Notes: generated from the sequence alone by a model not told the origin. 64,000 nucleotides of DNA from Yuukianura sp. NJ FZ-2021 (GCA_046563655.1 CM102283.1:310001-374000), one strand, 5' to 3'; counted from the first letter of the stretch, positions 28,201-63,890 are shown. Program-made: numbers and translations.

Positions 28201-31200
28201 GAAAATGTGTTTCTCCAGAATACTTTGGTGCTGTAAGCCTCGCTCACCTTTCCCAACAGCAAAAATAACTGTGAAATGCACCCAAAGAAGAACAACGGGA
28301 TTTCTGTAACAGGGCCAAAATGTGGCACTGGACTGCGAGTCAGCATGCCACTGGCGAAGCCAATAAAACTCGATCACGTCAAGGGATGGGACAAGTGATC
28401 CGTATCTTCATAGACTCAGTGGCCTTTCCGGCACTCGCGAAATAAGTCATAACGACACAAAAATATTGGTTAACAGCCGCGTAATGTTTAGGCGTTGGTA
28501 CCTCGGCGTAAGAGCAAGCAGAAAGCGGACTTAGGTGGTACTATTGTAACAAAGAAAAACCTATAATTACATCAGGTGAACTCGTAAAAGCCCTGATATC
28601 AGTTCTCTTCAAAGCCAAATTTTGAAGTGATGAGAAATAGTCGTTGCTATAGTTTTACAGTTTGATTAAACTAGCTTTGTTGACGCTCATGTTGTAAACT
28701 TCAATGCATTTGCGCTTGGTTTGAAAATGTGTTTCTCCAGAATACTTTGGTGCTGTAACCCTCGCTCACATTTCCCAACAGCAAAAATAACGGTGAAAAG
28801 CACCCAAAGAAAAACAACGTGATCTCTTTTACAGGATCAAAATGTGGCACTGCACTGCGAGTAAGCATGCCACTGGCAAAAAACCCAACAGGTCATCAGT
28901 TGACCTCGTAAAAGCCCTGATATCAGTTCTCCTCGAAGCCAAATTTTGAAGTGATGGGAAATAGCCGTTGCTACAGTTTGACTGTTTGATTAAACTAGCT
29001 TGGTTGACGCTCATGGTAAACTTCAATGCATTTGCGTTTGGTTTGATAATGTGTTTCTCCAGAATACTTTGGTGCTGTAAGCCTCGCTCACCTTTCCCAA
29101 CAGCAAAAATAACTGTGAAAAGCACCCAAAGAAAAACAACGTGATCTCTTTTACAGGACCAAAATGTGGCACTGCACTGCGAGTAAGCATGCCACTGGCA
29201 AAAAACCCAACAGGTCATCAGTTGACCTCGTAAAAGCCCTGATATCAGTTCTCCTCGAAGCCAAATTTTGAAGTGATGGGAAATAGCCGTTGCTACAGTT
29301 TGACTGTTTGATTAAACTAGCTTGGTTGACGCTCATGGTAAACTTCAATGCATTTGCGTTTGGTTTGATAATGTGTTTCTCCAGAATACTTTGGTGCTGT
29401 AAGCCTCGCTCACCTTTCCCAACAGCAAAAATAACTGTGAAAAGCACCCAAAGAAAAACAACGTGATCTCTTTTACAGGACCAAAATGTGGCACTGCACT
29501 GCGAGTAAGCATGCCACTGGCAAAGCCAATAAAACTCGATCACCCCAAGGAATCAAGTTATCCGTACCTTCCTAGACTAAGTGGCCTTTCCGACACTCGC
29601 GAAATAAATCGTAACGACACAAAAATATTGGTGAACAGCCTCGTAATGTTTAGGCGTTGGTACCTCGGTGTAAGAGCAAGCAGAAAGCGGACTTAGGTGG
29701 TACTATTGTAGCAGAGAAAAATCTATAATTACATCAGGTGAACTCGTAAAAGCCCTGATATCAGTTCTCTTCGAAGCCAAACTTTGAAGTGATGAGAAAT
29801 AGTCGTTGCTACAGTTTGACTGTTTGATTAAACTAGCTTGGTTGACGCTCATGGTAAACTTCAATGCGTTTGCGTTGGGTTTGAAAATGTGTTTTTCCAA
29901 ACTATTTTGGTGCTGTAAGCCTAGGTCACCTATCCCAACAGCAAAAATAACTTAAAAGTACCCAAAGAAAAACAACGTGATCTCTTTTACAGGACCAAAA
30001 TGTGGCACTGCACTGCGAGTAAGCATGCCACTGGCAAAGCCAATAAAACTCGATCACCCCAAGGAATCAAGTTATCCGTATCTTCATAGACTCAGCGGCC
30101 TTTCCGGCACTCGCGAAATAAGTCGTAACGACACAAAAATATTGGTTAACAGCCGCGTAATGTTTAGGCGTTGGTACCTCGGCGTAAGAGCAAGCAGAAA
30201 GCGGACTTAGGTGGTACTATTGTAACAAAGAAAAACCTATAATTACATCAGGTGAACTCGTAAAAGCCCTGATATCAGTTCTCTTCAAAGCCAAATTTTG
30301 AAGTGATGAGAAATAGTCGTTGCTATAGTTTTACAGTTTGATTAAACTAGCTTTGTTGACGCTCATGGTGTAAACTTCAATGCATTTGCGCTTGGTTTGA
30401 AAATGTGTTTCTCCAGAATACTTTGGTGCTGTAAGCCTCGCTCACCTTTCCCAACAGCAAAAATAACTGTGAAATGCACCCAAAGAAGAACAACGGGATT
30501 TCTGTAACAGGGCCAAAATGTGGCACTGGACTGCGAGTCAGCATGCCACTGGCGAAGCCAATAAAACTCGATCACGTCAAGGGATGGGACAAGTGATCCG
30601 TATCTTCATAGACTCAGTGGCCTTTCCGGCACTCGCGAAATAAGTCATAACGACACAAAAATATTGGTTAACAGCCGCGTAATGTTTAGGCGTTGGTACC
30701 TCGGCGTAAGAGCAAGCAGAAAGCGGACTTAGGTGGTACTATTGTAACAAAGAAAAACCTATAATTACATCAGGTGAACTCGTAAAAGCCCTGATATCAG
30801 TTCTCTTCAAAGCCAAATTTTGAAGTGATGAGAAATAGTCGTTGCTATAGTTTTACAGTTTGATTAAACTAGCTTTGTTGACGCTCATGTTGTAAACTTC
30901 AATGCATTTGCGCTTGGTTTGAAAATGTGTTTCTCCAGAATACTTTGGTGCTGTAACCCTCGCTCACATTTCCCAACAGCAAAAATAACGGTGAAAAGCA
31001 CCCAAAGAAAAACAACGTGATCTCTTTTACAGGATCAAAATGTGGCACTGCACTGCGAGTAAGCATGCCACTGGCAAAAAAACCCAACAGGTCATCAGTT
31101 GACCTCGTAAAAGCCCTGATATCAGTTCTCCTCGAAGCCAAATTTTGAAGTGATGGGAAATAGCCGTTGCTACAGTTTGACTGTTTGATTAAACTAGCTT

Positions 31201-32050
31201 GGTTGACGCTCATGGTAAACTTCAATGCATTTGCGTTTGGTTTGATAATGTGTTTCTCCAGAATACTTTGGTGCTGTAAGCCTCGCTCACCTTTCCCAAC
31301 AGCAAAAATAACTGTGAAAAGCACCCAAAGAAAAACAACGTGATCTCTTTTACAGGACCAAAATGTGGCACTGCACTGCGAGTAAGCATGCCACTGGCAA
31401 AAAAACCCAACAGGTCATCAGTTGACCTCGTAAAAGCCCTGATATCAGTTCTCCTCGAAGCCAAATTTTGAAGTGATGGGAAATAGCCGTTGCTACAGTT
31501 TGACTGTTTGATTAAACTAGCTTGGTTGACGCTCATGGTAAACTTCAATGCATTTGCGTTTGGTTTGATAATGTGTTTCTCCAGAATACTTTGGTGCTGT
31601 AAGCCTCGCCCACCTTTCCCAACAGCGAAAATAACTGTGAAAAGCACCCAAAGAAAAACAACGTGATCTCTTTTACAGGACCAAAATGTGGCACTGCACT
31701 GCGAGTAAGCATGCCACTGGCAAAGCCAATAAAACTCGATCACCCCAAGGAATCAAGTTATCCGTACCTTCCTAGACTCAGTGACCCTTCGGGCACTCGC
31801 AAAATAAATCGTAACGACACAAAAATATTTGTTAACAGCTTCGTAATGTTTAGACGTTGCTACCTCGGCGTAAGAGCAAGCAGACAACGGACTTAGGTGG
31901 TACTATTGTAACAAAGAAAAACCTAAAATGTCGTCAGATGAACTCGTAAAAGCCCTGATATCAGTTCTCTTCAAAGCCAAATTTTGAAGTGATGAGAAAT
32001 AGTTGTTGCTATAGTTTTACTGTTTGATTAAACTAGCTTTGTTGACGCTC
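7276..32050. repeat. Satellite array of a 522-bp monomer, 49 units (~24.8 kb)
   Basis: TGACGCTCAT recurs every 522 bp from 7801 to 28681 (40 periods), after a 520-bp first unit. Eight terminal units follow (~324, 322, 516, 514, 522, 325, 323, 516 bp). Central units differ by only a few SNPs. Confidence 0.98.
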
Positions 32051-32055
32051 TATCT

Positions 32056-32249
32056 AGCTATCCCCCTAGGTTACTATAGCGTACACACTGATTCTTAGAT
32101 ATGTACGAGTGAGGGATTAGTCTCAATATAGCCTTTCGCAGAGCAACAAGCTCTTCCGTGTCTCTTGTCTGTCCATTTGACCTCATCTCTGGCTGACCTC
32201 GGCTCCACCGAGCAGCCATACAGGAGATATCCGGACGTTTCCCGTCTCA
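32056..32249 (+). repeat. 5' LTR (first ~25 bp missing)
   Basis: Direct repeat of 40413-40606, followed by the PBS-like TGGCGACAAC. Confidence 0.95.
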
Positions 32250-33322
32250 GGTGGCGACAACAGTGACTCATGACGAGTCTGGAGTCTACACATCCGAAGA
32301 TCCGAAAACACCGAAAGGACAACTTCAACAACAAAAGGAAAGAAAGGTACCCCTAACACATTAAGCTGCAACCAATTAGTGCTTTGCTTCGCTGTTTTCA
32401 TTAGAATAGCGGGTTTTCAGGTCACATTAACGTTTCTTGTGCACGGGTCATGCCCGCTTTTTCTAAAAAAAAGGCTAAAAACTTAAAGTTTACAAAATTT
32501 TCAAAATGGCTGTCCACATGAGTCTGCAATAGAGAGAAAAAAAAAAGAAAAAAAAGGAGTTCAAAAGTAAAATAAAGTAAAGACATTCGTATCAGTGAAT
32601 TAGCATATTCAATTATCTTTTTCTTTCAATTGCATCCAGTGCACTTTACCAAACATAACGGAACACAGCATCAGCACATAAACAAACAAATCTCTTCAGC
32701 TCCTTTTGCTTATACCTTGATGGTAACGACATTGATGGTCTCGGCGCTAAACTTTTTCTTCTAAAACTGCCTTGTACAGGCAAATCCCTTGATGGGAACT
32801 AAAAGTCAACGGCCTACAGTTAACTTACAAAAAACAAACACTCCCTTGATGGGAATTAAAGTCAACTTTTGCAAGTTTAACCCACAAACAAATTCAAATT
32901 AACAAAAATCAAATACAAAAGACAACAAGTTTAACTCAAAAATTAAAATACAAATTCAATCTGCGGAGTAACGGAAAATTTAAAAATCAAATCAATCTAA
33001 ATTAACAAATCACAAAAATCAGAGAATAACATCTCATTTCCCAAACTCTTTCCGTCAAACACAATTAAAGTCAATTCAAGTAAAATCAAATCAATACAAA
33101 ATACAAAGTATAAAGTACAATTCAAATAAAAATAAATGTAAAACCCACCTTGAAGGTAAACGCCCTCGAAGAGAATTTCGACTCATGTTCCTGATTGGAT
33201 GATGACGACCGGCTCATTTCCTTGTATTTTTCTGTATTTCCCCCCAGACCATGGACCCCCACCCCCGGATTTTCTGGACCAGACCCCCCGGAAGACCCCC
33301 ATTTGGCCCCCCCCCCCCAATG

Positions 33323-33520
33323 TGTAGTGGACCCTGATCCGCACCCCACTCACCCCCATAGGCTAAGTTAGGATACGGCACACAATACACACACACACTC
33401 ATTCTCTCAGTCTCAATAAACCATCCGTTGGTTTCTCATCTGTCTTGGTTGTCTCTCTCTCCGTACGCTTCCTTCTTTCCAGCATCCATCGCCAGGGTCA
33501 GAGGTCACTCCCCCGGCACA
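33323..33520 (+). repeat. LTR of a second, related Gypsy family (with its 3' UTR from ~33185) inserted before gag
   Basis: TGTAGTGG...CCGGCACA with AATAAA at ~33415. The upstream context (CCCCGGAAG...AATGTGTAGTGG...CACCCC) parallels the host element's 3' junction (CCCCAGAAG...AATGTGTAGCGG...CACCCC). Confidence 0.65.
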
Positions 33521-33572
33521 AATCAGAGATCAACAAAAAGCACTACGAGAGGCCGAACAGGAACAACAAATC

Positions 33573-34965
33573 ATGCAGCTAATTGAGCAACAAAAAATAG
33601 AGCAACAAAAAGACGTTCCACAATTTACACTACTTTCAAATCAATCTTCAACATCTCAACGAGCTATTGTACCAGTGCCATCTAGCCTCACTCAAACTCA
33701 AACTCAAACAACTCCAACATTGCAATCGAGCTTAAATAGCGTTTCTGAAACAATAGTCGAGGCAATAAAAAACATTCGCCTAACTACAGTCAACTAACAA
33801 ATCCCATTGCCAAATTTGACGCCAGACGTCACACAGCAGAATCCTTTTTGAAAGACGTTGAACGTTATTTTGTCAGTCAAGGTTATACCGCTCCCCAATG
33901 GCTATACCTCGTAAAAACGGTACTTCCCGAAGAATGTCATGCTTGGTGGCAACATACACATTCCCAATCTCAATCGTGGGATCAATTCAAAAAAGAATTT
34001 ATGGACAGATTCGACGGGAAGGGGGAACAACAGAAAAGAATGAAATTTTTAGCAAACAAAATGCAAGGATACAAAGATCCAACTGAAACGTACATTTACG
34101 AAACATTGCGTCTCGCCAAACTCTGCTATCCAAACGACAATACTTCCGAATCACTTCAACGTATACAATCATCGTCATTTCCCCGAATTCATACACAACT
34201 AATTCTCAGATCCAGCTGATATGTTCAGAGCAATTAAGAAGATTCATGAAAATTTAAAAGCGGAAGACAAGAAAAACAACATTTATGATGCACTACCGCC
34301 ATTAGTCGCACTCTCGCTTCAAAATAACTCTCATTCTCAAAATTATCATCAAAACTCCTATCGAGGAGCACCCAAAGGAAATTATTACAACAGAAGAGGA
34401 AACTCTGAAAGGCCAAACCCTCAGAATTCAGGAACTTCAAGATTTTACAATTCAAATCCACAACAAAATCCACAAAATCAACAAAATGAACAAAATCCAG
34501 AAAATAACGCCCAAGAAGGGAACCCACCTAGAAGGGAATTCAACAATTACAACAATAGAGGTTATCGCCCTCGTAACAATTACCGTGGACGTGGTTACAC
34601 AAATTATCGTGGAAGAGGTTACCGTGGAAACAATCGTCGAAGTTACAACAATTCCTACAGAGGTTACAATCCAAATCGTCGTCCTTACCGTGGTTACGGC
34701 GGACGAAACGGCAGACGAAATTACCAAGAATACTACCAACAACCTTACCTCGAAGGTCAAGGACAACAAAACCAAAATCAAAATCAAAACCAACCAGATC
34801 CAGGAAATTCTCAAAAATGCACAAAATGCCTTGGCTACGGTCACAGCAAAAGATTGTCCTACAAAACAAGGATTAGTTCTGTGTACTCAGAATGATCCCG
34901 CCTTTGTTCAAAGTTCAAGCTCAAATGAGCAACCTCAATTTCAAGACAATCAAAATTTAAACTAA
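33573..34965 (+). pseudogene. gag: Gypsy gag (capsid-like region, RG/N-rich region, CCHC knuckle), disrupted
   Basis: FLKDVERYF..CHAWW..SWDQFKKEFMDRF retrotransposon-gag motif; YRGRG repeats; CTKCLGYGH/AKDC knuckle across a frameshift. Confidence 0.85.
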
Positions 34966-35049
34966 TTACGGAGGATAAGAAAGCGCAATGTAATCTCCTC
35001 CCAATTCTAACATTCAATGATCCTGACTGCGCAAATTCATCAAATCAAA

Positions 35050-38000
35050 CAGAATCATCTCAAATTCGAACACTTTTTGATACTGGCAGTGATTACACTA
35101 TCATCGACATCTAATTGGCAAAGAAAATTCAAAAATCTTCGATCAATGCAAGGAAAAATCATTCTTTATTGCAAATAATTCAACAATTCAACCAACTGGC
35201 ACAATTCAATTGCAAATTAAGTTTGGAGAAAACGTTCTCCACACTACAGCCTACGTCATGGAACAGTTACCATTTCAATTAATAATTGGCAACGACGTTC
35301 TGAACAAATATCAAATCATCATTGATGTCTCCGAAGACAAATCTTGGTTCAAAAATCAACCAAACATCAAATTCAATACTCAATTCTCCAAAACCAATCC
35401 AAACAAAACTGTGTGTCTCAACGTCACAAAAGAAGATCCAACTCCACAGTCAATTGTAGACCCAACAGAAAAGAAAATTCTCGACTTACTTGCTCAATTT
35501 CCAGAAGTAGCAAAAAACGGCAATGAATACGGCAGAACAAACTGCACTCGTCATGAAATTGAGACAATTGGTCCACCAATTGCTCTCCAATCATATTCTT
35601 ATTCTCCAAATATTCGAAAAATTCTAAATCACGAAATTGAACAACTACGGAAAAAAGACATGATCCAACCATCAAGTTCACCTTACGCAGCCCCTGTCGT
35701 CATGGTCAAAAAGAAATCAGGCTCTTATCGCCTTTGTGTCAACTACATGAGACTAAATGAAACAATGAAAACTAACGCAGGCCTAATGGACAATGTCAAT
35801 TCAATTCTACGTACAATTCCCATGAACCACGTTTATTCTGTTATCGACATGAATGGCAGGTTTTTCCAAATTCCAATGCACGAGAATAGCATTCACAAAA
35901 CAGCATTCATTACTCAAGATGGTCACTACGAATTTAAAGTTATGGCTATGGGACTCAAAAATCACCAAAAACCTTCCAATCATTAATGCGAAACGTTTTA
36001 CATGGATATGTGGACGTTTTCGTCAAAATTTTCATGGATGACATACTCATTTACTCAGAAAACATGGAACAGCATCTTATTCACCTTAAATTAATCCTCC
36101 AAAGACTAAAGGAAGCCAATTTAACAATCAATAAATCTAAATCGACATTTACAAAACCCTACGTTGGATACTTTGGTCACATCGCTTCCAAAAATGGTAT
36201 TCAAAAAGAACCACACACGATGATCGCAATTAATAATTACGCAATTCCACAAAACAAACCCGACCTCTTCCGATTCCTAGGTCTCTGCGGATGGTACTCG
36301 ACTTTTATTCCAAACTTTAGTCAAAAAGCGGAAGCCCTCTACCATTTACTACGAAAAGAAAACGCATGGAGATGGGACCCTCCGCAACAAAAATCATTTG
36401 AAGATTTAAAAACAGCCATCTGTGCAGACGTCATACTCGCAACTATCGACTATTCAAAACCATTAATCATGCAGTGCGACGCTTCAACCAACGGTTTAGG
36501 CGCAGCACTTGTGCAAGAATATGATGGGAAAGAACGCCCCATCATGTTTGTCAGCAAGACTCTCAAAAATTCGGAACGTTCAGCTCATATCTACGAAAAA
36601 GAACTCTACGCAATTATTTCCGCTTACGACAAATTCCATGAATTTATTGAAGACCACCCCTTCATTATTGAAACAGACAACCGAGCAATCCGATATTTAA
36701 AAGGCATGAAAAACAAAAAACCCAAACTAATCAAATGGGCAATTGAAATTACATCATGGAATACGAAACTATGGTTTCGAAAAGGTTCCGAGAACGTGGT
36801 AGCGGACGCGTTATCGCGGGCAAGTGTTCCTGAAAATGAAGACGATCCTGATCTATTTAAGAAAGAGAAAAGCTTCACCTTCCAAAATTTCTCCTTGTGT
36901 ACTGCACAGCATCCTTGATGGAGATAGCCCAGGAGCAACAAAAAGATCCAATTCTTACCAAAATCATTACTACATTAAACTTTTCGGAAAACCTAGGGCC
37001 CGGGAACTCCAAGAAGTACAAGATGGAAAATAACACATTATTCATCAAAATCTCACCATTTAAACTCACTACTACAAATCAAAAATTGAAATCAATTCTC
37101 CAAAAGACAACAGGACCGTATACACCTGATTGTCAAATTCCAATTTGTACTACAAAACAATGTCCTCATTTTCAAAAATCTCAAGAAACTAATACTACAG
37201 GAGAAATCCACCTTGATGGTTTATTTACAAAAAAACACTCTGATGAGTTAATAAAAAATCTAGAAGATTACTTTGTTCCAGTTATTCCAGAAAATTTAAA
37301 ACAAAAAATTCTCCAAATATTTCATGATGCACCCGAAGCCGGCCACTTCGGAAGAAAGAAAACAATTGAAAGAATCAAGCAAAGATGTTATTGGAACAAC
37401 ATGAATAAAGAAACTGCAGGCTATGTCAAGTCCTGCCCAAAATGTCAAGCATCATAACCAACAAATCAAAAGCCTTATGGTCTTTTACAGTTAGCGAAAT
37501 CAGCTACTTCAGTATTTTCAACTTTACATGTGGATTACATGGGACCATTTCCCACAAGCATTGGCGGAAGACAACATAAAAATTTTCTTGTCGTCATTGA
37601 CGAATTGTCCAAATGGGTAGAATTATTCCCAATAAAGGACGCTACAGCAGAAAAAAACAGCAAACATTATCGAAAATAAAATATTTTGCAGATTCGGCGT
37701 TCCAAAGAAAATCCTTTCGGACAACGCTAGACAATTTGACGGCAATGTCACTGCCGAACTATGTGAAAAATGGGGCATTGAACACAAGTTCATCGCAGCT
37801 TACCACCCTCAACCGAATCAATTAGAAAGAACAAATAGAAACATAAAAAAGATGCTCCAAATCTACATTGAATCAAGTCACCACAAATGGGATGAACACA
37901 TACAGAAATTTGCATTAGCAATTCGAACTGTCATAAACGAAACAACTCAAGCCTCACCTTCACCACTTAACCTTGGCAGAGAAATTAAACTGCCGTTTGA

Positions 38001-38680
38001 TCGAAAACTAGAAGCAGAAACGGAAAATTCCGAAAATGCTGTTGAACAACTGAAAAAGTTACCAGAACTACTAAAAGAAATGATTCATTTTGTGAGAAAA
38101 AATATAAACAATGCACATCAGAAATCTAAAATAAATTACGACAGAACTCACCGTCAAGACAATTTTAAAACAGGAGAATTAGTTCTCATTAAATCTCATT
38201 TCCTGTCTGACAAGGACGCAGGATTTATGGCCAAACTTTATGGCAGGATTTATAGCCAGGATTTATGGCAAGGACCCTATGTGTCAGGTTAAAGAACTTC
38301 TAATGTAACCTTTGACATATTACAAATCGAAGACAAAAAATCTATTGGTAAAAGACATGTGTCGCAAATAAAACCATTTGTTCAAAGAGAAACAAAAATA
38401 AAAACGTTACTGAACTACCAAAAGACAATTCAAACTCAATTAATCAACCAATAGCTGTTAATGAAACAACAGAACCTTCACGTAGAAATCTACGAGACAG
38501 ACAAAAATTAAATTATCGCGAATTAGCAGGTTTTCGTTCAAAAACTATCGCTATAATCACTGAATCCGAATGGGATAAATTATTAAACTTCAACGATTAT
38601 TTAGAATCGTGCGACGAAATTATTATCGAAACAAAGAAAAACTTAGAAACACACCTTGATGGTTCTATACTAACTACATA
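35050..38680 (+). pseudogene. pol: Gypsy pol: protease, RT, RNase H, integrase (frameshifted)
   Basis: LFDTGS (PR, ~35075); PSSSPYAAPVVMV..YRLCVNY..KTAFIT..FMDD (RT); CDAS..GLGAALVQ..KELYAI..ETDN..NVVADALSR (RH); HDAPEAGHFG..CPKC, DYMGPF, AYHPQ.N..ER.N (IN). Confidence 0.95.
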
Positions 38681-38756
38681 AAGCTTGCATGACGCTTGCA
38701 AAATACTAAAAATTAATCACTCAACTAAAATGTAATATTTTTCTTTATATTACAGA

Positions 38757-40256
38757 ATGCCTTCTCCAATTAAAACTACGGTGAAGCCGGTAAACTACCC
38801 AGCCAAACGCCCAATGGAAAATTCACAGTATTTCCAATTTCAAAAATGGGTTTAGGAAAGAAACAAGAAAGGATTCGAATTTACTTCAAATCCAAATCAC
38901 AACTTGATTCGTGACTTCAATCTTTGTCCACCAAAAACATTACCAAATTTTGATGCAAGTACTGATGACACTCGATCTACAACTCCACTAATCATGTTGC
39001 AAGACGACAACGACTTTTAAAGTACGAAAAACGACCTTGAAGGTTCTACGGAAATTGCAATCGACTTGGAATTCTCGAGATCATTCGTATTGTGGATCAA
39101 CTTACACAGCAGTACTTCAAATTTCAACTCAGAAAAATGATTATCTCATTTGTCCCTTTCAATTTGGACACAAAGGACACGCATTTGCGAGTCTAAAAGA
39201 CTGATCAACATAACATTGAACACAACAAAGATATCCAAACCGCAAGATTTATTAAAAGTCACTAAAATTGGCAAAACTGACAGATACTTCAGAAATCAGT
39301 TCATGTTTCCTCGAGGAATTATCAAACGGAATCCAAATAAACCCGATTCTTACATTGTCATACCTCCAAATTCTGATCAAAAATCAACTCGAGCAAAACC
39401 ACTTCCAGAGGATGACTGGGACGAACCAACGACAACTTCAAATACAACGCAAATTCGAAAGAGTCAACCCCCAAAACCAATCCAAATTCAACTTAATCAA
39501 AACGACCAGAGAATCGTTCAAGAAATCGACACAATGTCAACAAAGTCATGGGATGACGAAATTTCTCTTCACGATTCTGATGAAGACATAAATACATTTT
39601 TACGACCAATCTCTACAGCATCAACCCAAACTGATGATTCAAAAATTGCTACTTCCGAGATTGCATGCCAAATTACACCATTATCAACAAACACCGCAGA
39701 AAAAGAAATTCAAACAGAGGAAAATGACGAAATCGAACTCGAAATTCAATGGGAAGAAATCGTCGAAACTGCACGAAAGCAAATCTCCGAACAAATCAAA
39801 AATCAACCAGAAATTGAAATCATGGAAATTCCAGAAACTCCAAACCAATCAGAAATTCAACCAATTGAAAATTCGGTTCCAAGTTCCCCTGAAATTCAAA
39901 TTATTGAACCACCTCAAAATCAAATTCCGATTCAGCATCAATTTATTCCCCATGCTGCTTTATCTGCTTCAAATCTGATCATGTTCGCCGAAACTGTCCG
40001 AACAACTCTCCAGAAATTCGATTATCTCTTTCCTTCCAGAAAGAAAGGAAATACAGAAGACAAATCCTTGAAAAACAATATCGCCACTATTTCAAAAAGT
40101 GTCGGGAAAAGTACGAAAAACATTCTTCGAAATCTTCGAACCTTGCAAGAAAATAAAATTATCAAATTAAAATTATCAGGAAAAAAAAATAATAAAAATA
40201 TCAAAAAAATCATCAAAAAAAATATACATACTCAAAATAAAATTATCAAAATATAA
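38757..40256 (+). pseudogene. Gypsy ORF3: N-terminal Rrp6/RNase D-like DEDDy exonuclease fragment followed by an acidic/low-complexity region and a basic tail
   Basis: Splice acceptor TTTTTCTTTATATTACAG (ends 38755) sits next to ATG 38757. Manual translation: NPNHNLIRDF..TTPLIMLQDDNDF*STKNDLEGSTEIAIDLEF, then after a frameshift near 39075 RDHSYCGSTYTAVLQISTQKNDYLI. It continues into ORF 39150-40256. Confidence 0.65.
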
Positions 40257-40387
40257 AATTTAATTTCCCCACTCTACGCTAATTGGTATTCTCTCGAATA
40301 CGAATTCGAGCCATAGAGGACCCACTGAGGCCGGTAGAGACCCCAGGATACCCCCAGAAGGAGGCCCACTTTCTTCGCGGCAGAATG

Positions 40388-40606
40388 TGTAGCGGTAGAT
40401 GACCACACCCCCAGCTATCCCCCTAGGTTACTATAGCGTACACACTGATTCCTAGATATGTACGAGTGAGGGATTAGTCTCAATATAGCCTTTCGCAGAG
40501 CAACAAGCTCTTCCGTGTCTCTTGTCTGTTCATTTGACCTCATCTCTGGCTGACCTCGGCTCCACCGAGCAGCCATACACGAGATATCCGGACGCTTCCC
40601 GTCTCA
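40388..40606 (+). repeat. 3' LTR
   Basis: TGTAGCGG...GTCTCA; direct repeat of the 5' LTR. Confidence 0.95.
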
Positions 40607-43746: not shown

Positions 43747-46700
43747 TTAAACGCCGAGCGGAGCTGTAGAGTGGTTATCAACCACAGAGACAGAAGTTCC
43801 TTCAATTCCTGGCACTGTTCCCGAAGTAGGCGTGTTGGTTTTAGAATGGTTCATGGAGTACGTAACCCCGCCAAATCCATGCAGAGTAATGTCATGTTCC
43901 GACATGTACCCTGGAATCTGTAAGTGATTCGGCGCAATGATCGTAAACAGTTCTTGTAGTCCCGCAATATTTTGGATCCTAGGCTTGATCGCAGGCGCCA
44001 TGAAGGTAGTGAACCACCAGGTTAAGATCTGTAAAACGTTAAGAACCTTAGCCTTTGCTGAGTGGACCTCACAGGAGTTTAGCATAGGTCCAAAAATTAT
44101 CGCTAACGTATTCACTTACTTTTGTCCACAAGGTTGGATGGACTATGCGTAGTGATTTGAGATTCTTCTTAAATCTGTACTCCATGTTGTCATAGACAGA
44201 TCTCATCCAGCGAAAGGACGGGTGATTTTCTGTTTCCGTTTTCGTATGGAAGTAGATGACTGTGTAGTCACCATTGATATCATCCAGCAATTTCACCAAA
44301 TATAGGAACGCTTTATCTATAACCATTCAACCGCAATTTAATTTTTGTCATCCGCATTTAGGTTAGGTTCAGTTAACATTAACTTTACCGTTAAGTTACT
44401 ATAGTGGTTTGTCTGTCTGTCTGTCCGTCCGTCTGTCTGTCCAGATTAATTATCTCAGAAACTACTGGTCGGATTTGATTCCGGTTTTCACCAGTGACCA
44501 TGTCATGACCCGGGCTTGGTCACTATTGAATATGACCCCCGTGTGTCAACTCCTTCCGGGTCAAAGCTCAAGGTCAACCGGTTTTATCCCCGGTAATATG
44601 GAAAATGACCTCTACAAAAGTTGTTCATCTCATCCAGACCAACAACTTTTGTGTGTAATGTGTGAGCCTAGGTCACCTGCTTCCGGGTCAAAATTGATTT
44701 TAAAGGTCATTTGTAATGCAAGTGTGGGTAAAAAAACTCTTTTTGTGAGACTGGAAAGGCAATTGGCATGGGACTTGATTCTCTGCTTAGCAAAAAATCT
44801 ATTACGCAGTTAACATGTACACGTGTGCCAGTCGCCTATCCATTCGTTCTGTTGTTGCTTCATCCAGATCCCACCTCTCCTCATCTTTGTTTGAAGTCAC
44901 TGCGACATCCCATAGGAGGTGAGGAAGTGGGAGAAACACCCTCTCTCCCCCGGGGCACTCACCCCCTCTCCTCCGGGGCACTCACCCCCTCTCTCCCGGG
45001 GAACCACCCCTTCTCTCTCGTGCAACCACCCCCTCTCCCCCGGGGTACCCACCTGCTCTCCCCCGGGGAACACACCCCCGCGCTCCCTGGGGTGCGGAGC
45101 AAAAAAGTGGGGGGAACACTCCCACTCCCCCCGGAGGGGCAGGAAAGTGGCGGAACACACCCCCGCGCTCTCTGGGGTGCGGAGCAAAAAAGTGGGGGGA
45201 ACACCCCCACTCACATGGGGGGGGGTCGGAAAATGGGGGGGGGGGGCACCGCCACTCCCCGGGGGGAAGTGGCGGGCGTCAAAGTGGGGAAAACACACTT
45301 TCACTCCCCCGGGGTGGGGGCGGGAAAGTGGGGGAACACCCCCACCCCCTGGGGGGCAACCCCTTATTTCTGAGCTATTATCAGTATGCGCAGTTTACAA
45401 CCGGTTTTTATAATAGCGAAGCTACTATTATAGAAGACGTCTGTCTGTCTGTCCGGATAATGTACCTCGGAAACCACTGGTCCGATTTGATTCCGGTTTT
45501 CACCAGTGACCATGTCATGACCCGGGCTTGGTCACTATTGAATATGACCCCCGGGTGTCAACTCCTTCCGGGTCAAAGGTCAAGGTCAACCGGTTTCATC
45601 CCCGGTAACATGGAAAATGACCTCTACAAAAGTTGTTCATCTCATCGAGGGGAACAACTTTTGTGTGTAATGTGTGACCCTAGGTCACCTGCTTCTGAGT
45701 CAAAATGGATTTCAAAGGTCATTTCTAATGCAAGTCTGGGTACAGAAAACTCTGCTTGTGAGACTGGAAAGGCAATTGGCATGGGACTTGATTCTCTGCT
45801 TAGCAAAAAGTCTATTACGCAGTTGACATGTACACGTGTGCCCAGTCGCATATCCATTCGTTCTGTTGCTTCATCCAGATCCCACCTCTCCTCATCTTTG
45901 TTTGAAGTCAATGCGACACCCCATAGGAGGTGAGGAAGTGGGAGAAACACCCTCTCTCCCCCGGGGCACTCACTCCCTCTCCCCCGGGGCACTCACCCCC
46001 TCTCCCTCGGGGCACTCACCCCCTCTCCCCCGGGGCACCCACCCCCACGCTCCCTGGGGTGCGGAGCAAAAAAGTGGGGGGAACACCCCCACTCCCCCCG
46101 GACGGGCGGGAAAGTGGCGGAACACACACGCGCGCTCCCTGGGGTGCGGAACAAAAAAGTGGGGGAACACCCCCACTTCTCCGGAGGGGGCGGGCGTCAA
46201 AGTGGGGTGAGCACACCCCGACTTCCCCGGGGAGGGGCGAAAAAGTGGGGGGACACCCCCACTCCCTGGGTGGCAACCCCTTATTTCTGATCTATTATCA
46301 GTATTCGCGGTTAATAGCGAAGCTATTATAGAAGACGTCTGTCTGTCTGTCTGTCTGTCTGTCCGGATAATGTACCTCGGAAACCACTGGTCCGATTTGA
46401 TTCCGGTTTTCACCAGTGACCATGTCATGACCTGGGCTTGGTCACTATTGAATATGACCCCCGGGTGTCAACTCCTTCCGGGTCAAAGGTCAAGGTCAAC
46501 CGGTTTCATCCCCGGTAACATGGAAAATGACCTCTACAAAAGTTGTTCATCTCATCGAGGGGAACAACTTTTGTGTGTAATGTGTGACCCTAGGTCACCT
46601 GCTTCTGAGTCAAAATGGATTTCAAAGGGCATTTCTAATGCAAGTTTGGGTACAAAAAACTCTGCTTGTGTGACTGGAAAGGCAATTAGCATGGGACTTG

Positions 46701-49700
46701 ATTCTCTGCTTAGCAAAAAATCTATTACGCAGTTGACTCAACTGTCACCTGTCACACTTCATCTGTTACATCTCACTTGTCACCTGTCACACTTCATCTG
46801 TTACATCTCACTTGTTACCTGTCACACTTCATCTGTTACATCTCACTTGTTACCTGTCACACTTCATCTGTCATATCTCACTTGTCACCTGTCACACTTC
46901 GTCTGTCACATCCCACTTGTCACCTGTCACACGTCACTTGTCACTTGTCACCTGTCACACATCACTTGTCACATGTCACACGGCACCCGTCACGCAGGAA
47001 AATGGGGGCACCCACCCCCTCTCCCCCCGGGGAACCACCCCCTCTCCCTCGTGGTACCCACCCCCTCTCCGCTGGGGAACCCACCCCCTTTCCCCCGGGG
47101 TACCCACCCCCTCTCCGCCGGGGAACCCACCCCCTTTCCCCCGGGGTACCCACAACGCGCTCCCTGGTGTGCGGAGCGAAAAAAGAGAGGGGAACACCCC
47201 CACTCCCCCCGGACGGGCAGGAAACTGGCGGAACACACCCCCGCGCTCCCTGGGGCGCGGAATCAAAAGTAGGGGAAACACCCGCACTCCCCCCGGGAGG
47301 GCGGGAAAATGGGGGGAGCACCCTTACTCCCCCTGGGGGGGGACGAAAAGTGGGGGCACCCCCACTCACCCGGGCTACCCACCCTCTCTCCCCTGGGGCA
47401 CCCACCCCCGCGCTCCCTGGGGTGCGGAGCAAAAAAGTGGAGGGAACACCCCCACTCCCCCGGGGGGGGCGGAAAAGTGGGGGAACACCCCCACCCCCTT
47501 GGAAGGCAACCCCTTATTTCTGAGCCATTATCCGTATGTGCGGTTTACAACCGGTTTATTATAATACGATGTGAGTCTTACCCAAATCGATGCTATCTGG
47601 ATTAAACCATTTCCCGACAACCACCAGCACGGGACGTCCTAACCTATCAGGACCGCTTCGATAAAGGCAACCAATTTTTGCAATGGAACTCAAATCTTCT
47701 TCATGAGCTCTGCGTAGAATCCTAGCTTGCCTGTAAAACAAAAACAACAAATTAGATATCAACCAAGTTCGCAGAACATTTTGTTTGTCACTGACGGATC
47801 TTCATAGATTCCTTTCACAGTAGAGTCCATTTCTTCCAATGTCTAAACAGTAAAAGTAATTTCAAAAAGTTGAAACATGTATAATCCCGATAACTTTGGC
47901 GAACGATAAAATCCGGAGAAATTAGTTTAAATGATTTGAAATTTAACTTCACACTCCTAATAAAATCATACCACAACGGATAAGGAAGGAAGAACTAAAT
48001 GAATTGACTCACAGTTACTAGCTGAATTGCGCTTTGTTATAACGAAAATCCAAATTCTTCCGTACTTCAGCAAGTAAAGATAAAAAATGCTGAACAGGGT
48101 GAGTAATCCCTATTAAAGTCATTGCTTAGGTGTTAATGCTTGACGCACCGTCAAGTGAAGTGGAATCACTTGACATCGATATGTCAGCTATTGACATAAA
48201 AGAATCTATATTTACATATTGTTGTTGAGTTCAAAACTGTAGAAATAAAAACAATAACCTCTTGAGTTTGACTCTGAGTAATAAAATTCAGTTGCTCACC
48301 GTTCTCTTGTTTCAATTTCAATTGCAATATGGCGCTCCCTATCGTTCATGCTCTGGAAACTGGGCCGTCTCCTGCCGTGAGCGTCAAACAATAGCCGTTC
48401 TTTGTCCACGTCGTCCTTCATCGTTACAAAATCCCGATTAAGTTCTGGAAGAATGCACTGACTGGAATCATCATCAACGTCTCTCAGATTCGGATTCTCC
48501 GCGGGATTAGAGAAGATTCGAATTCTCCTATCTGGCCACCATGTAGCACCAGTTTCATCTCCAATTTCTTTTGGCAATCGTGAACAGGCGAACTCTTCAT
48601 GGGAAGATTCTCTCGGAAAATAGGAAACCATCAAGGATTCGTACAATCTGCCAAAATTAAAAAAGAGTTAAGTGAAGGTGCACTCTCCTCTTATTTAGCG
48701 AAGTAACTTTGATCCGGAAGCGCTAATATGTATGGTATTGGTGGTTTTCAGCATGATTATTGCAAATATAAACTTGCTCCAATATTGCCCAATCACCTGA
48801 ATAGGTTTGGATCCGGAACGCTGAGGATGATAAGACTGGGGTACGAATGACCCTTCTCCAGGAATCGCCTGACTGTGCGCATTGCAATATGTACACCAAG
48901 TTCATCCGGAAACAATGTCTTTCCACCGTAATGAAGCGGCGGAATTCCAACAATTGTGAAGCTCCTTTCCAGAGAAAGCTTAAAAAAACAAAGTTGTGCA
49001 AATACATTCATAACGGACAAATTCAATATATTATTTAAACTAGTATACCTGAAGTACTGTGTTGTAGCAACTAAAAAGTGCAGTTTGTGCAGCAGTTTTG
49101 TATTGATCCGAGTACTTAGGACTAACAGTTAGGATGACATGTCGACATGGAAGATTTGGATGAGATTTGATCACCTAAAAAAAAGAATTATAAAACATTC
49201 AATATAAATTCTGACCCAGGGAAAAGCTTAAAAACTTCAAATGATTTTAACGTTGAATTAAATTAAAATTACTTTAGCATCACCCGTTCGGATTGAATGA
49301 ATTTCAGAACGAATTTCACGTTGGTAGTCGTGCCCAGTCCTTTCAAGTAATCCAGGAGAAAAATCGGACAGGGCTTCATTTGTCAATTGTGTCAAGCCAT
49401 CCATACACAATGAGAAGACGTCTCCATACCTGCGAATAGTACACAATGAACAAAGTTATTAGCTTACGCGTCCGCAATTACAATAACTTTCTCAGGGCGG
49501 TGAAGGAATACTGAAACAAGGACTTGGGGGGACTGGGAGTATTAAAAAACAGTATTGATCAGTCACACCGACAATCATTACCGATAATAGTACTGACAGG
49601 CTGGGAAATCGATGTCCGCAAAATTCCACTCACATGCAAATTCCGTATGTGACATTTCACATTTTATGCGTCATTCTTGTCGTTAGAAATTAAGTCTTGC

Positions 49701-54359: not shown

Positions 54360-54907
54360 CAGGTCATAGCCGCCAATCCAAAAGCGGCCAATCCCATAGG
54401 AGCCAATCAATAGCGGCCAATTTCTAAAGCGGCCAGTCCCTTAGCGGTCAATCCTAAAGCTGCCAATTTCTAAAGCGGCCAATTTCCAAAGGCGCCAATT
54501 CCTTAGCGGCCAATCCTAAAGCGGCCAACGTCAATAGCCGCCAATATTTAAAGCCGACAAAATTAGAAACTGCCGATTATAACTTAAGGTAATCACCCTA
54601 CGTAGTAATTCACATTAACGTGGCCTAACCAAACCTAACCTAGGTTAATCAAGCATAACACAACCTAAATAACCTAGCCTGATTAAATTAAAACTCGTTT
54701 CTAGTTTTGTCGGCTTTAGAAATTGGCGGCTATTGACGTTGGCCGCTTTAGGATTGGCCGCTAAGGAATTGGCGGCTTTAGAAATTGGCCGCTTTAGAAA
54801 TTGGCCGCTTTAGGATTGGCCGCTAAGGGATTGGCCGCTTTAGAAATTGGCCGCTATTGATTGGCTCCTATGGGATTGGACGCTTTTGGATTGGCGGCTA
54901 TGACCTG
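54360..54907. mobile_element. Foldback-type MITE with GCGGCCAAT subrepeats
   Basis: CAGGTCATAGCCGCCAATCC...GGATTGGCGGCTATGACCTG; arms of ~200 bp built of tandem subrepeats. Confidence 0.8.
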
Positions 54908-60311: not shown

Positions 60312-60702
60312 TATTCTGGCAAATGCTGAACTAGACTAAAAATCAATTTTGAATTGCTAGTTGTTTTGTCAGTTAAGCATTGCGAACCAAACACATCTTG
60401 CAACTTGAGAGCAAAACAATGGCCTTTTATAAACCTGTTCCTGATAAAAATTTGAGACGTTTTTTTTCCAAAGAATTCCCAAATTTTAATATCATACTAA
60501 AACTAAATAGATTTTTTTGTGTGTTTTCGCTTACTGGACCAGAAGTTGAAACAAAGTTTTGAACTGCTAAAATTGTTCTAAAAATAATCATATCAGAAGA
60601 AATGGTCAATGGTACATTGGATCATCTTCATCGTTCATTGATTACTAAATGAACTGGACAGCTGATTTCGACAACTGAAACTTCATCAATCAATGACCTC
60701 CG

Positions 60703-61479
60703 ATGACCTCTACTGAAGAACCAAAGACCCGAGGAAGGAAAAGGAAATCACAACAGGAAGAATCACCGGCTACAAAATCACTCAAAATGGGAGAGCCTAG
60801 CATTTCTTCAGTTCTTGCCGCTATCAAATCACTGAATGACAAGATGGACACCAACCATGCTGGAATAACTCAACAGATTCAATCACTCAGCACTGAAGTA
60901 ACAACTATCAAACAAAGAATGAAGGCATCCGACGATTTTCAAAGAACACTGTCTACTCAAATTGAATCTCATGATTCCGACCTTGAACGTCTCCAAATCA
61001 CCGTCAACAAAATCAACCAAATCGTTCACGGTCTTCAAATTACAAATAATGAAACGGCTGATTCCGTCAAAAATGAACTTGAAAGAATCTTCTCACTTGC
61101 TGTGCCGCTGATGAATCTTCCGATCATCGACGACAACTATCGTCTGGGTCGTCCTACTCCACAAAATTCCAGCAAGCCAGTCAAAGTGATTTTCAAATCA
61201 CTTAAAGCAAGGAACACGATTTGGAAAGACCGTAACATAATCAAAACTGCTTATCCTCACCTTAATATCACTCAAGATCTACCCCTGCAAACTAGGCAGA
61301 AACTCGCAGCACGTCGCCAAAATCGGAATGCATCTCCAGGATCGATTCAAAATTCACAACAAACTTACTCACAAGCCACATCTACTTATCCGAATCAAAC
61401 TTCCGCTGTATTTGGCAACAGCACCTTCACTCGACGTTCTCCGCCTCCTGCTCCACTACTTAATCAAAATACAGCCTGA
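60703..61479 (+). CDS. LINE ORF1 (coiled coil + RRM-like), CR1/L2 type
   Basis: 258-aa ORF with a heptad coiled coil and IDDNYRLGRP..KPVKVIF..I.QDL motifs, directly upstream of an APE endonuclease. Confidence 0.75.
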   Translation: MTSTEEPKTRGRKRKSQQEESPATKSLKMGEPSISSVLAAIKSLNDKMDTNHAGITQQIQSLSTEVTTIKQRMKASDDFQRTLSTQIESHDSDLERLQITVNKINQIVHGLQITNNETADSVKNELERIFSLAVPLMNLPIIDDNYRLGRPTPQNSSKPVKVIFKSLKARNTIWKDRNIIKTAYPHLNITQDLPLQTRQKLAARRQNRNASPGSIQNSQQTYSQATSTYPNQTSAVFGNSTFTRRSPPPAPLLNQNTA

Positions 61480-61504
61480 CTATCACGAGACTCGACCAAT
61501 CTCA

Positions 61505-62420
61505 ATCAACTAAAAATTGCTGGTCTAAATGTCTGTAATTTCAATCCGAAGTGTGACCTAATAAATCTTTTTCTCGACATTTACGACGTTGATATCCTGT
61601 GCATCTCAGAAACTCATTTGAACGAAAAACATCCGCCACGCACCGTAGAAGGCTACAACTTCATTCACACTGACCGTTCTTGGCAATCTAAAGGGAGTGT
61701 CGGAATTCCTATTAGGTCGTCCTTAAAGTTTTCGCTGAAGTTAACTTCACTATCTGAAAACCGAAACTTTGAAGTCATTAGTGCTGTCATACGACTGAAA
61801 TCAAACAAGTCTATAATCGTGTCTAGTGCATACAGGATTCCAAACTACAACACAGGTGCAATCGAAGCTGATTTGAACTCTATGACCGAACTTTTCAGCA
61901 CACTAGCTATCACCAACAAAAGTTGTTTTGTTCTTGGTGATTTCAACCTAAACCCAACCTACATTCCAAATAACTTTCAAACCAATTTTAAATAAACAAC
62001 TTCAATCTTTAAACAACTTATCACTACTCCAACGAGGGGAAACTCAACACTAGATCTTATTTTCACCAATTGCCCAGAAATTGTGACAAGCACAGTAGTC
62101 ATTAATCCTGGCATTTCGGACCATCTTTCAACTCATGTAACGGTCACCCTTAAAAAGCCGAAACTCCCCAAAGTAAAAATCAAATACGAAGACTACAAAA
62201 ACTTCGACTACGAAGAATTTGGGCTAAAGCGTGTGTTTACTTCATTTGACAAAAACAATAGAGACTTAGAATTGCAATTTCAAGAACTTATCTCCAAAAT
62301 CGGCAAACATTTCACAGACACGATCCAAACAAAGACTATCTCATTAACACAACGAACGATACCACTCCAATTATCAGAGAAAACAAAATCCCTCATCACC
62401 CAGCGTGATTTACTGATTAA
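61505..62420 (+). pseudogene. LINE ORF2 APE endonuclease (CR1/L2 type), truncated
   Basis: LNVCN, DILCISETHL, YRIP, VLGDFN, PTRGNSTLDLIFTN, GISDH motifs; internal stop at 61993-61995. Confidence 0.85.
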
Positions 62421-63709: not shown

Positions 63710-63890
63710 AACATCATGGCCTTACCAATCGAGCTTCGGTCAATGCTGTCCAACGCATTTCCAACTAAAGTACGTGCCACTTTATTCAAATTCCTTATCG
63801 AGTCTCAGCGTATCTCGGAATTGAAGATGTTAGAACAGATGGACGATGGCCTAGAATTGCTACTCCATATTTTTAACACATCTTAATCAT
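63710..63890 (+). mobile_element. Probable resumed 3' end of the CR1/L2 ORF2
   Basis: ALPIELRSMLSNAF..KV..LFKFL resembles the CR1/L2 C-terminal LP...R...S...F motif and is followed by an AT-rich tail. Confidence 0.45.

Follow-up and report, generated by a model that had tools for sequence, protein, structure and literature searches.

A short reiterated sense-strand motif in a Ty3/gypsy retrotransposon of Yuukianura sp., putatively a multivalent protein-binding site in its RNA

A nine-letter word recurs, exactly or in close variants, on the sense strand of one Ty3/gypsy retrotransposon, as the initial annotation had indicated, and is found in the untranslated leader as well as in gag, pol and a third open reading frame (ORF3). 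The window, i.e. the whole stretch of DNA analysed, comprised 64,000 nucleotides (nt) of Yuukianura sp. NJ FZ-2021 (GCA_046563655.1 CM102283.1:310001-374000), and all positions are counted from its start. The motif probably has some selected function. The reading that fits best, with a probability of about one half, is that of a putative RNA-level site for multivalent protein binding. On this reading, (A)CCUUGAWGG(U) would be a cis-element specific to the lineage of this Ty3/gypsy family, acting on the sense-strand RNA. It may have been multiplied in the 5' leader by short tandem units, together with an 18-nt unit of copy-dependent number, and may also have become embedded in gag, pol and ORF3 where the protein tolerates it, multivalent protein binding to the full-length transcript being the most likely mechanism.

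Distribution of the motif along a decayed Ty3/gypsy element

The carrier is a single LTR element on the plus strand (32056-40606), a Ty3/gypsy retrotransposon that has decayed. The part of its 5' LTR that is repeated at the 3' end (32056-32249) forms a 194-nt direct repeat with 98% identity to the 3' LTR (40413-40606), and no motif copies occur within 32056-32249. A candidate primer-binding site (PBS; 32252-32267), placed by position alone, starts with TGG 2 nt past the LTR end; no tRNA genes for matching it were found in the window. The leader also contains, 5' of gag, a diverged LTR-like relic (33170-33530), which is under the blastn threshold and was seen by block alignment with 40290-40606. 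The gag gene (33573-34962; first ATG at 33573), which occupies three frames in the present copy, combines a capsid-like domain with an RG/RGY-rich stretch and with a CCHC-type knuckle that a frame change interrupts. Its profile scores (Retrotrans_gag, 6.9e-5; Ty3_capsid, 5.1e-4) are both beneath the Pfam cut-off. Downstream of the RG-rich stretch, C-x2-C-x4-H is in frame at approximately 34816-34845 and the last Cys lies in another frame; a Pfam zf-CCHC match is absent because the frame of the knuckle is broken. The pol gene (34929-38681) encodes protease, RT, RNase H and integrase, is interrupted by several changes of frame and by a TAA in frame at 37455, and is matched by the Pfam profiles RVT_1, RT_RNaseH (6.2e-29), RT_RNaseH_2 (3.2e-30), Integrase_H2C2 (1.1e-20) and rve (2.4e-7). 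ORF3 (38757-40256), of about 500 codons in a single frame with three in-frame stops, had no Pfam match (39141-40253 searched) and no Atlas match, and belongs to no known family. A search of the whole window against Rfam 15 gave no matches at gathering score.

All six exact plus-strand copies of CCTTGATGG that had been listed before were retrieved (32715-32723, 32787-32795, 32844-32852, 36913-36921, 37211-37219 and 38654-38662), as were the variants CCTTGAAGG (33148-33156 and 39035-39043) and CCTCGAAGG (34748-34756), which lie on the same strand of the same element. A one-mismatch scan added CATTGATGG (32730-32738), one letter off the exact word. A seventh exact copy occurs outside the element, on the minus strand (48628). 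Seven exact copies in the window compare with 0.44 expected, and ten exact and variant matches with 1.12 expected, and these counts were reached by none of 100 shuffles in either case. In the internal part of the element (positions 32250-40412, with A at 0.385, C at 0.225, G at 0.148 and T at 0.242), CCTTGATGG is the second commonest 9-mer, the other top 9-mers being A-rich low-complexity words. Under Markov models of orders 1, 2 and 3 (200 simulations each), 0.0, 0.01 and 0.105 copies are expected in the element, and, as a look-elsewhere correction, any 9-mer with at least five G+C attained six copies in 0, 0 and 2 of the 200 simulations, respectively. With approximately 0.01-0.1 copies expected and six exact copies seen, the count is far above chance, as originally proposed.

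The excess is both strand-specific, concerning the sense strand, and specific to the LTR element. Indeed, with one mismatch allowed, 9 sense versus 1 antisense matches are found inside the element, and the 16 matches in the whole window represent no enrichment over the 12.8 expected. This strand bias opposes composition, as the reverse complement suits the A-rich strand better.

Five of the ten sites are located in coding sequence, where they are placed at synonymous positions. The variant in gag (34748) is read as tyrosine-Leu-Glu-Gly, the copy at the RNase H/integrase junction (36913) as Ser-Leu-Met-Glu in a frame set by alignment to the relatives P0005 and P0001, the copies in the integrase N-terminal region (37211) and 17 nt 5' of the pol stop codon (38654) both as His-Leu-Asp-Gly, and the variant in ORF3 (39035) as Asp-Leu-Glu-Gly. 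Leu-Asp/Glu-Gly is encoded four times in the reading frames adopted, each time by the motif. The residues at 36913 are unconserved in P0005 and P0001, and the aligned residues at 37211 differ in P0005, so that, judged by these nearest relatives, the protein does not dictate the word. Furthermore, the enrichment outlasts a synonymous-codon shuffle of 6543 coding bases that preserves the amino acid sequence: three exact copies are present versus 0.30 expected (at least three in 1 of 2000 shuffles), and the variant copies number 5 versus 0.79 expected (at least five in none of 2000). The first refutation named in the initial annotation, based on such a shuffle, thus did not materialise.

The other five sites (32715-33156) are in the leader, 3' of the candidate PBS (32252) and 5' of the first gag ATG (33573), which is the position of a Psi packaging signal. 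Four of these are found inside 138 nt (32715-32852), one being degenerate in the present copy and exact in other copies of the family. This is the site at 32730: position 32731 is C in the contigs of all four sequencing runs, at a depth of 1386.4/1386.4, 277.4/277.4, 221.2/221.2 and 45/48.2 (X1 to X4), which yields the exact 9-mer with GACC/GGTC flanks. Hence, a site present in the family has been lost from the decayed copy. The family comparison was informative at this one motif site, among 40 listed of 895 variable places. In some other copies, the variant at 33148 belongs to a tandem array of 18-nt units, an X2 contig stepping back from 33160 to 33138 with ACCCACCTCGAAG in between, which makes three units in a row. 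Some family contigs (X1 and X4) apparently skip the leader cluster (32691 to 32884), on sides of only 20-24 letters. In three distant relatives, represented by partial contigs with only 43-47% protein identity, the motif was present in none of the three loci, and no further copies of the element family were found in the other collections searched.

It is unlikely that the word has no function, in which case a leader tandem repeat would hold it and the rest would stem from chance, small duplications or template switching in reverse transcription. Such an origin fits several observations. The copies at 32787 and 32844 are the two units of a 57-base tandem duplication and hence not independent, the right flank of the second being 7/10 identical to that of the first, and the 18-nt array is a tandem repeat too. 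The copies at 38654 and 39035 have ACCTTGAWGGTTCTA in common (14 of 15 bases), and the flanks of those at 37211 and 38654 agree in 11 of 20 bases (null P of about 0.01 per pair, with 45 pairs tested). Also, the Markov models exaggerate the margin, since in neighbouring real DNA one G+C-rich 9-mer or another is often present in three dispersed copies per 8.2 kb, and the element copy is dead, so that current selection cannot show in it. However, with the tandem pair collapsed, five copies were still reached in only 0, 1 and 3 of 200 simulations (orders 1 to 3), and the protein-preserving shuffle likewise speaks against chance. The copies are not fragments of longer repeats, because their flanks differ beyond 12-15 nt, and the letter that the family has at 32731 gives back the exact word, not a different variant.

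Complementarity of the flanks and predicted hairpins

The word had initially been described as a recurrent covarying pentaloop hairpin with flanking pairs that change together, a description that holds in part. The first flanking pair, which is the third pair of the stem, is complementary at all ten sites (AU at seven, CG at two and UA at one) and covaries; its covariation score of 0.328, versus 0.086 in shuffles, was reached by 1 of 500 shuffles. The second flanking pair is complementary at only five of the ten sites. At the four leader sites of the cluster this fourth pair is always complementary, with two pair types, when the letters of other copies are used at 32730. The two inner pairs (CC/GG) never vary, so that covariation is absent where it would be most telling and the word is mainly a sequence motif. 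The covariation corresponds to two independent compensatory events among paralogous sites, or about 1 in 72 by a hand count that re-pairs nine sites with the tandem pair collapsed. Among the 12 sense-strand occurrences of TTGAT, six have stems of at least three pairs, all with CC/GG, and the other six have 0-1 pairs; none of the 12 has its loop on any other stem.

A pentaloop hairpin at the motif sites is supported only in part by folding in context (30-nt flanks), as the hairpin probability exceeds 0.9 at only three of the ten sites and is below 0.2 at five. The unpaired probability of the loop is in the top decile at only two of the ten sites (median percentile about 0.6), and the central G is unpaired with P > 0.6 at five. 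Convincing predictions of the hairpin are limited to leader copies, with -3.5 to -5.9 kcal/mol. There, the copy at 32715 has a 4-bp stem (TACC/GGTA; -3.5 kcal/mol in isolation, z -3.28), its pairing probability in context being 0.11-0.18 because the neighbouring copy is its pairing partner. The tandem copies at 32787 and 32844 have the stem TCCC/GGGA, with -5.7 and -5.9 kcal/mol and pairing probabilities of 0.96-0.99 and 0.94-1.00, respectively. The structure of the leader segment overall is not unusual (z -0.49). The copies at 33148 (triloop, -2.0 kcal/mol, z -0.70), 36913 (3-bp stem, -2.4 kcal/mol, z -0.39), 37211 (-2.0 kcal/mol, z -0.39) and 38654 (-2.0 kcal/mol, z -0.31) have 3-4 bp stems that are no better than shuffles, which is again compatible with a lack of function. 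The variant at 39035 is predicted to form a triloop on a 5-bp stem (-3.1 kcal/mol, z -1.25), with a pairing probability in context of only 0.01-0.02, and that at 34748 a triloop within a longer 8-bp stem (-6.0 kcal/mol, z -1.58; pairing probability 0.91-0.94). As the GAAGG variants fold as triloops, there is no single fixed structure common to all sites.

Taken as an RNA-level site, the invariant CC...GG would close a minimal stem of 3-4 bp on which U-U-G-A-U is displayed (a triloop with G in the case of the variants), and the sequence would then be read by a protein.

Candidate partners and alternative levels of action

The likeliest partner would be the Gag protein of the element itself, given its RG-rich stretch and CCHC-type knuckle, and the purpose would be packaging, an assignment that is put forward tentatively from sequence features. 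If Gag is involved, the leader cluster may act as the core signal for encapsidation, with the dispersed copies as auxiliary sites that raise avidity. The complete scheme, in which about ten minimal hairpin words in the leader and overprinted on gag, pol and ORF3 would be read cooperatively by Gag as dispersed packaging signals, is doubtful.

Alternatively, an RNA-level site may serve a non-Gag partner, either a host RNA-binding protein or the ORF3 product, in the nuclear export of unspliced RNA or in its localisation, stability or translation, rather than in encapsidation. All sequence evidence for an RNA-level element fits this possibility equally, and the presence of a third ORF without known family is in line with it. 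A precedent is the LTR retrotransposon Cer1, whose extra protein CERV is needed for export of genomic RNA (PMC10309623). In addition, the A-rich transcript has splice-like signals (TACTAAC at 38668 and ttacag at 38750-38755, just 5' of the ORF3 ATG), which would create a need for help in the export of unspliced RNA. On the other hand, ORF3 matches nothing in Pfam or the Atlas, and the weak and inconsistent structure counts against binding of such a partner as much as against Gag binding. A non-Gag partner is rather unlikely.

A DNA-level array for a host factor (an enhancer, insulator or silencer protein), with stray sites elsewhere, is less probable still. In the Drosophila gypsy insulator, Su(Hw) repeats, twelve in number, form a cluster within the 5' UTR (PMC2493044). 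The leader cluster described here, with four closely spaced sites (32715-32852) and A-rich spacers 3' of the PBS, has the same location and layout, both being leader arrays of gypsy-type elements in which AT-rich spacers separate repeats of a short motif. Moreover, the word is a near-palindrome (NCC-5-GGN'), and its leader copy number differs between copies. However, the gypsy insulator, as described in that source, works at the level of DNA and does not extend beyond the leader, whereas the present motif is strand-consistent over 6.3 kb. The six sites outside the tandem cluster are all oriented like the cluster, against base composition, and all ten sites thus have one orientation, with a single antisense near-match, which differs from the free orientation and coding context of double-stranded DNA sites. 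Five sites are in coding sequence at synonymous positions. Finally, the two flanks vary in concert, a feature that recognition of DNA would not call for even with a dimeric protein, and this argues for RNA.

A splicing or translation signal (a 5' splice site-like G|GT, upstream ATGs, a stop-start overlap or a +1 slippage site at a Leu codon) is very improbable, for although T follows seven of the ten sites to give G|GT (G|GTAA at the leader sites 32723 and 33156), a good acceptor lies 5' of ORF3, TGA overlaps ATG within the word and an in-frame Leu codon CTY is present at four of the five coding sites (a phase bias that is not significant because a stop excludes one of three phases), three sites lack GT, most match poorly past +2, the TGA at 36913 is out of frame in the frame taken from relatives and makes no stop-start there, the variants have neither TGA nor ATG, and the sites are away from the gag-pol boundary.

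Comparison with known packaging systems

The putative multivalent RNA-level site resembles, in the first place, the dispersed packaging signals that mediate assembly in ssRNA viruses and hepatitis B virus (HBV; PMC6281560), and on which a SARS-CoV-2 preprint is available (10.64898/2026.06.18.733228); the concept is contested for STNV (PMC6475782). Those signals are many short, individually weak stem-loops with a small recognition motif, spread across untranslated and coding sequence of the packaged strand and overwritten on the protein code, and the sites described here, as putative stem-loops, would share this design. Unlike those signals, the motif described here has an invariant inner stem, so that sequence outweighs fold, its stems are only 3-4 bp with two loop forms, and half of its sites are clustered in the leader. 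Also, the carrier is an LTR retrotransposon, and no dispersed packaging-signal system in LTR retrotransposons is described in the literature cited here.

A second likeness is that to retroviral leader signals. Exposed guanosines are targets of zinc knuckles, and in MoMuLV the motif UCUG is present at several sites (PMC7599994). Similarly, the present cluster lies 3' of the PBS and 5' of gag and reiterates a short motif with a G that is predicted to be unpaired in part of the sites, in an element encoding a candidate CCHC-type Gag. The retroviral sites, as portrayed in that source, are confined to the leader and exposed by dimerisation, whereas the element has five more sites in gag, pol and ORF3.

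Thirdly, Ty3 belongs to the same superfamily, although the element is only distantly related to it, its best protein match of any kind being 53% identical. The cis-elements defined in Ty3 comprise a bipartite PBS together with a dimerisation site that is palindromic, and the accounts cited report no reiterated motif (PMC4974528; PMC11381356). According to the same accounts, the sequences that direct packaging in Ty3 have yet to be defined, and both retrosome localisation and packaging relied on 'UTRs or POL'. This points to redundant determinants distributed along the RNA, such as a dispersed signal would give. If Gag does read dispersed hairpin words cooperatively in the present element, it would provide the first case of an LTR retroelement with a packaging code defined at the sequence level, and a dispersed Gag-read signal of this kind would offer a concrete explanation of the 'UTRs or POL' redundancy of Ty3.

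Placement and strand of the repeated motif

The 9-mer CC-TTGAT-GG recurs along a Ty3/gypsy LTR retrotransposon (32056-40606, +). Re-reading of each site in the window placed the six exact copies (32715, 32787, 32844, 36913, 37211 and 38654, +) and the three variants (33148, 34748 and 39035, +) exactly where the initial annotation had them, and its claim that the motif exceeds chance was borne out by both Markov simulations and a synonymous-codon shuffle. By count, the motif ranks second among the 9-mers of the element's interior, in the company of A-rich low-complexity words. Markov simulations of the element gave 0.0, 0.01 and 0.105 expected copies at orders 1, 2 and 3, respectively; six copies of any 9-mer with at least five G+C occurred in 0, 0 and 2 of 200 simulations, and five copies, the tandem pair being counted once, in 0, 1 and 3 of 200. 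The true margin is smaller than this estimate, because copies 32787 and 32844 are units of one 57-nt tandem duplication and because 8.2 kb of real DNA from the neighbourhood often contains some G+C-rich 9-mer in three scattered copies. Six copies in four dispersed clusters were equalled there by a C-rich minisatellite only. A repeat search and flank comparison led to rejection of the copies as pieces of longer repeats.

The excess persisted when synonymous codons were shuffled over 6543 coding bases, with three exact copies versus 0.30 expected (at least three in 1 of 2000 shuffles) and five variant copies versus 0.79 expected (at least five in 0 of 2000). In the reading frames used, every Leu-Asp/Glu-Gly tripeptide (4/4) is encoded by the motif. 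The residues at 36913 and 37211 vary in the nearest relatives (alignment to the related proteins P0005 and P0001), so that the nucleotide word appears to impose the peptide and not the reverse; a protein-driven origin through a conserved Leu-Asp-Gly was rejected, as these residues differ and the excess survives the shuffle. With at most one mismatch allowed, the element holds nine sense sites versus one antisense site, and the remainder of the window is at expectation. An exact CCTTGATGG lies outside the element at 48628-48636 (-), its third position being unpaired, and fits chance (0.44 copies expected in the window). On the sense strand, a single sequence comes close to the motif's reverse complement (8/9; 35669-35677, +); it is located in the conserved stretch that codes for the N-terminal part of RT and could, judging from its sequence, pair with any motif copy.

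Sequence word, predicted hairpin and family variation

The evidence mostly favours a sequence word over a hairpin. The two inner C-G pairs are invariant, the one exception being the degenerate 32730 site of the window copy. Of 12 TTGAT on the sense strand, half (six) have stems of at least three pairs, all CC/GG, and half have 0-1 pairs. The third pair is complementary at 10/10 sites and of three types (AU 7, CG 2, UA 1), and the fourth at 5/10. The covariation score was 0.328 versus 0.086 in shuffles, 1 of 500 of which reached the observed score; once the tandem pair is collapsed, this covariation amounts to two compensatory changes that are independent of each other, for which our own count of re-pairings gives odds of about 1 in 72. 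Hairpins in the leader (32250-33572, +, between the 5' LTR and gag) are predicted to be stable (-3.5 to -5.9 kcal/mol, z -2.2 to -3.3), and the dispersed copies at 33148, 36913, 37211 and 38654 reach -2.0 to -2.4 kcal/mol (z -0.3 to -0.7). Site 39035 is at -3.1 kcal/mol (z -1.25), and site 34748 falls within a longer stem (-6.0 kcal/mol, z -1.58). The GAAGG variants are predicted as triloops. In context, a stem probability above 0.9 was predicted at 3/10 sites and a highly accessible loop at 2/10; taken as one piece, the leader segment has an unremarkable predicted structure (z -0.49). Scans of the window returned no Rfam family and no tRNA. Considering stems, context probabilities, loop accessibility and triloop variants, the modelled structure holds up well in the leader copies but poorly in the others. 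The observation underlying the initial annotation was thus confirmed, and its interpretation as a covarying pentaloop hairpin was supported in part: the covarying third pair and the leader stems agree with it, but the inner pairs, the dispersed stems and the triloops do not.

Sequences of the family were found in four public DNA sequencing runs (two studies and two organisms, A and B), with many contigs 80-99% like the element; no RNA run was among those listed. Position 32731 is C in nearly all depth in 4/4 runs, and the window reads CATTGATGG at 32730; with C at 32731, an exact tenth motif site arises at 32730, flanked by GACC/GGTC. One contig of run X2 reaches 33160 and, after 13 further letters, resumes at 33138, which yields three consecutive 18-nt units carrying CCTTGAAGG, CCTCGAAGG and CCTTGAAGG, and makes CCTTGAAGG and CCTCGAAGG interchangeable members of a leader repeat. 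Furthermore, the leader cluster (four sites in 32715-32852) is partly skipped in several contigs, over 78-192 nt (for example, from 32798 to 32877 in three runs). Together with the 18-nt tandem array in at least one X2 contig, this indicates that leader unit number is polymorphic in the family. None of the 40 variable places listed, out of 895, falls inside a motif copy, which is no measure of conservation.

The element and its surroundings

On the + strand, the composition of the element's interior (8163 nt) is strongly skewed towards A and away from G (A 0.385, G 0.148). A repeat search retrieved LTR direct repeats of 194 nt each, 98% identical (32056-32249 and 40413-40606, +), and sequence reading a candidate primer-binding site with a TGG start after the 5' repeat (32252, +). 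If the LTR begins at the TG at 40385, approximately 28 nt that stand ahead of the repeated stretch in the 3' copy are missing from the 5' LTR. Translation and Pfam gave the Ty3/gypsy domain order gag, protease, RVT_1, RT_RNaseH (6.2e-29), Integrase_H2C2 (1.1e-20) and rve, the match to Retrotrans_gag/Ty3_capsid being weak. The copy in the window is a dead element, since gag and pol extend across all three frames, an in-frame TAA occurs at 37455, and ORF3 contains three in-frame stops. In Gag, a long Arg-Gly/Tyr-rich (RG/RGY) low-complexity stretch (34440-34850) lies directly upstream of a CCHC-type knuckle, read as C-x2-C-x4-H with the final Cys in another frame, a frame change splitting the knuckle. 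ORF3 (38757-40256, +; translated as about 500 codons in a single frame) matched nothing in Pfam or the Atlas, and its product has an acidic central part and a Lys-rich end. Upstream of it, TACTAAC (38668-38674), a pyrimidine run and ttacag (38750-38755) look like the branch point and splice acceptor of a subgenomic mRNA. The leader contains a diverged LTR-like relic (33170-33530), blocks of which can be aligned to the LTR and 3' end of the element itself; motif copies flank it on both sides. This suggests either an origin of the family through recombination of related elements, two in number, or a role of the relic as an internal promoter.

The closest protein in a search of 5.8 billion is 53% identical, which indicates that this lineage is poorly sampled. 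No second copy was found in the window, and no family copies among metagenome, viral or prokaryote genome contigs; metagenome contigs held three distant partial loci (43-47% protein identity), with the motif in 0/3. The insertion site of the element lies in a satellite with spacings of 322/323 nt and 514-522 nt (28570-32055, or perhaps already from about 8000); between 8 and 28 kb, base composition is uniform. Elsewhere in the window are a G+C-rich block (44937-47492; 0.50-0.53) made up of minisatellites whose units measure 23 nt, 35 nt and 40-84 nt and are rich in C runs and CCCGGGG, two facing, mutually inverted arrays of 15-16-nt units with GGCCAAT (54367-54900), and non-LTR retroelement fragments (60697-63721), where Pfam recognised an Exo_endo_phos endonuclease (61480-61995, +) and RNase H plus zf-RVT (62486-63721, -).

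Candidate functions of the motif

A selected signal that is read on a single strand, i.e., on the RNA, is favoured by four features: a strand consistency that runs against composition, placement at synonymous positions, flanks that change on both sides, and the C seen at 32731 in the family. Ranked first, at a probability of roughly 0.3, is the tentative reading that the element's Gag would bind the motif copies multivalently on RNA, close to the dispersed Gag- or protein-binding signal proposed in the initial annotation. This ranking rests on the position of the leader cluster, where retroviral packaging signals sit, on guanosine binding by CCHC knuckles, which bind exposed guanosines, MoMuLV having several UCUG sites (part of PMC7599994), and on Ty3, whose signals are described as undefined, 'UTRs or POL' being sufficient (PMC4974528 section 9; part of PMC11381356). 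A site on the RNA for a partner other than Gag, for example a host protein or the ORF3 product, is less probable; CERV of Cer1 provides a precedent (part of PMC10309623). Just as doubtful is a motif without function; in that case, tandem-repeat dynamics and small duplications would be shown to mimic a signal, and how far. A DNA-level factor array, resembling the twelve Su(Hw) repeats of gypsy (part of PMC2493044), is more unlikely still, reading on one strand being what the strand and synonymous evidence favours. Splicing or translation signals are the least probable. G|GTAA at 32723 and 33156, both within motif copies, could be splice donors. Termination-reinitiation at 36913 was rejected, the frame fixed by the relatives putting the TGA out of frame.

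The packaging determinants of LTR retrotransposons are described as undefined even in the best-studied models (again PMC4974528 section 9 and part of PMC11381356). In this family the candidate signal is a single reiterated, easily mutated word that can be seen in the leader and is written over three genes, and it would open the packaging question to direct binding and probing tests. Should the motif serve export, localisation or a host factor, it would still be an unusually clean nucleotide-level signal imposed on transposon coding sequence. As a variant, the feature belongs with the reiterated cis-motifs of retroelement RNAs and with dispersed packaging signals.
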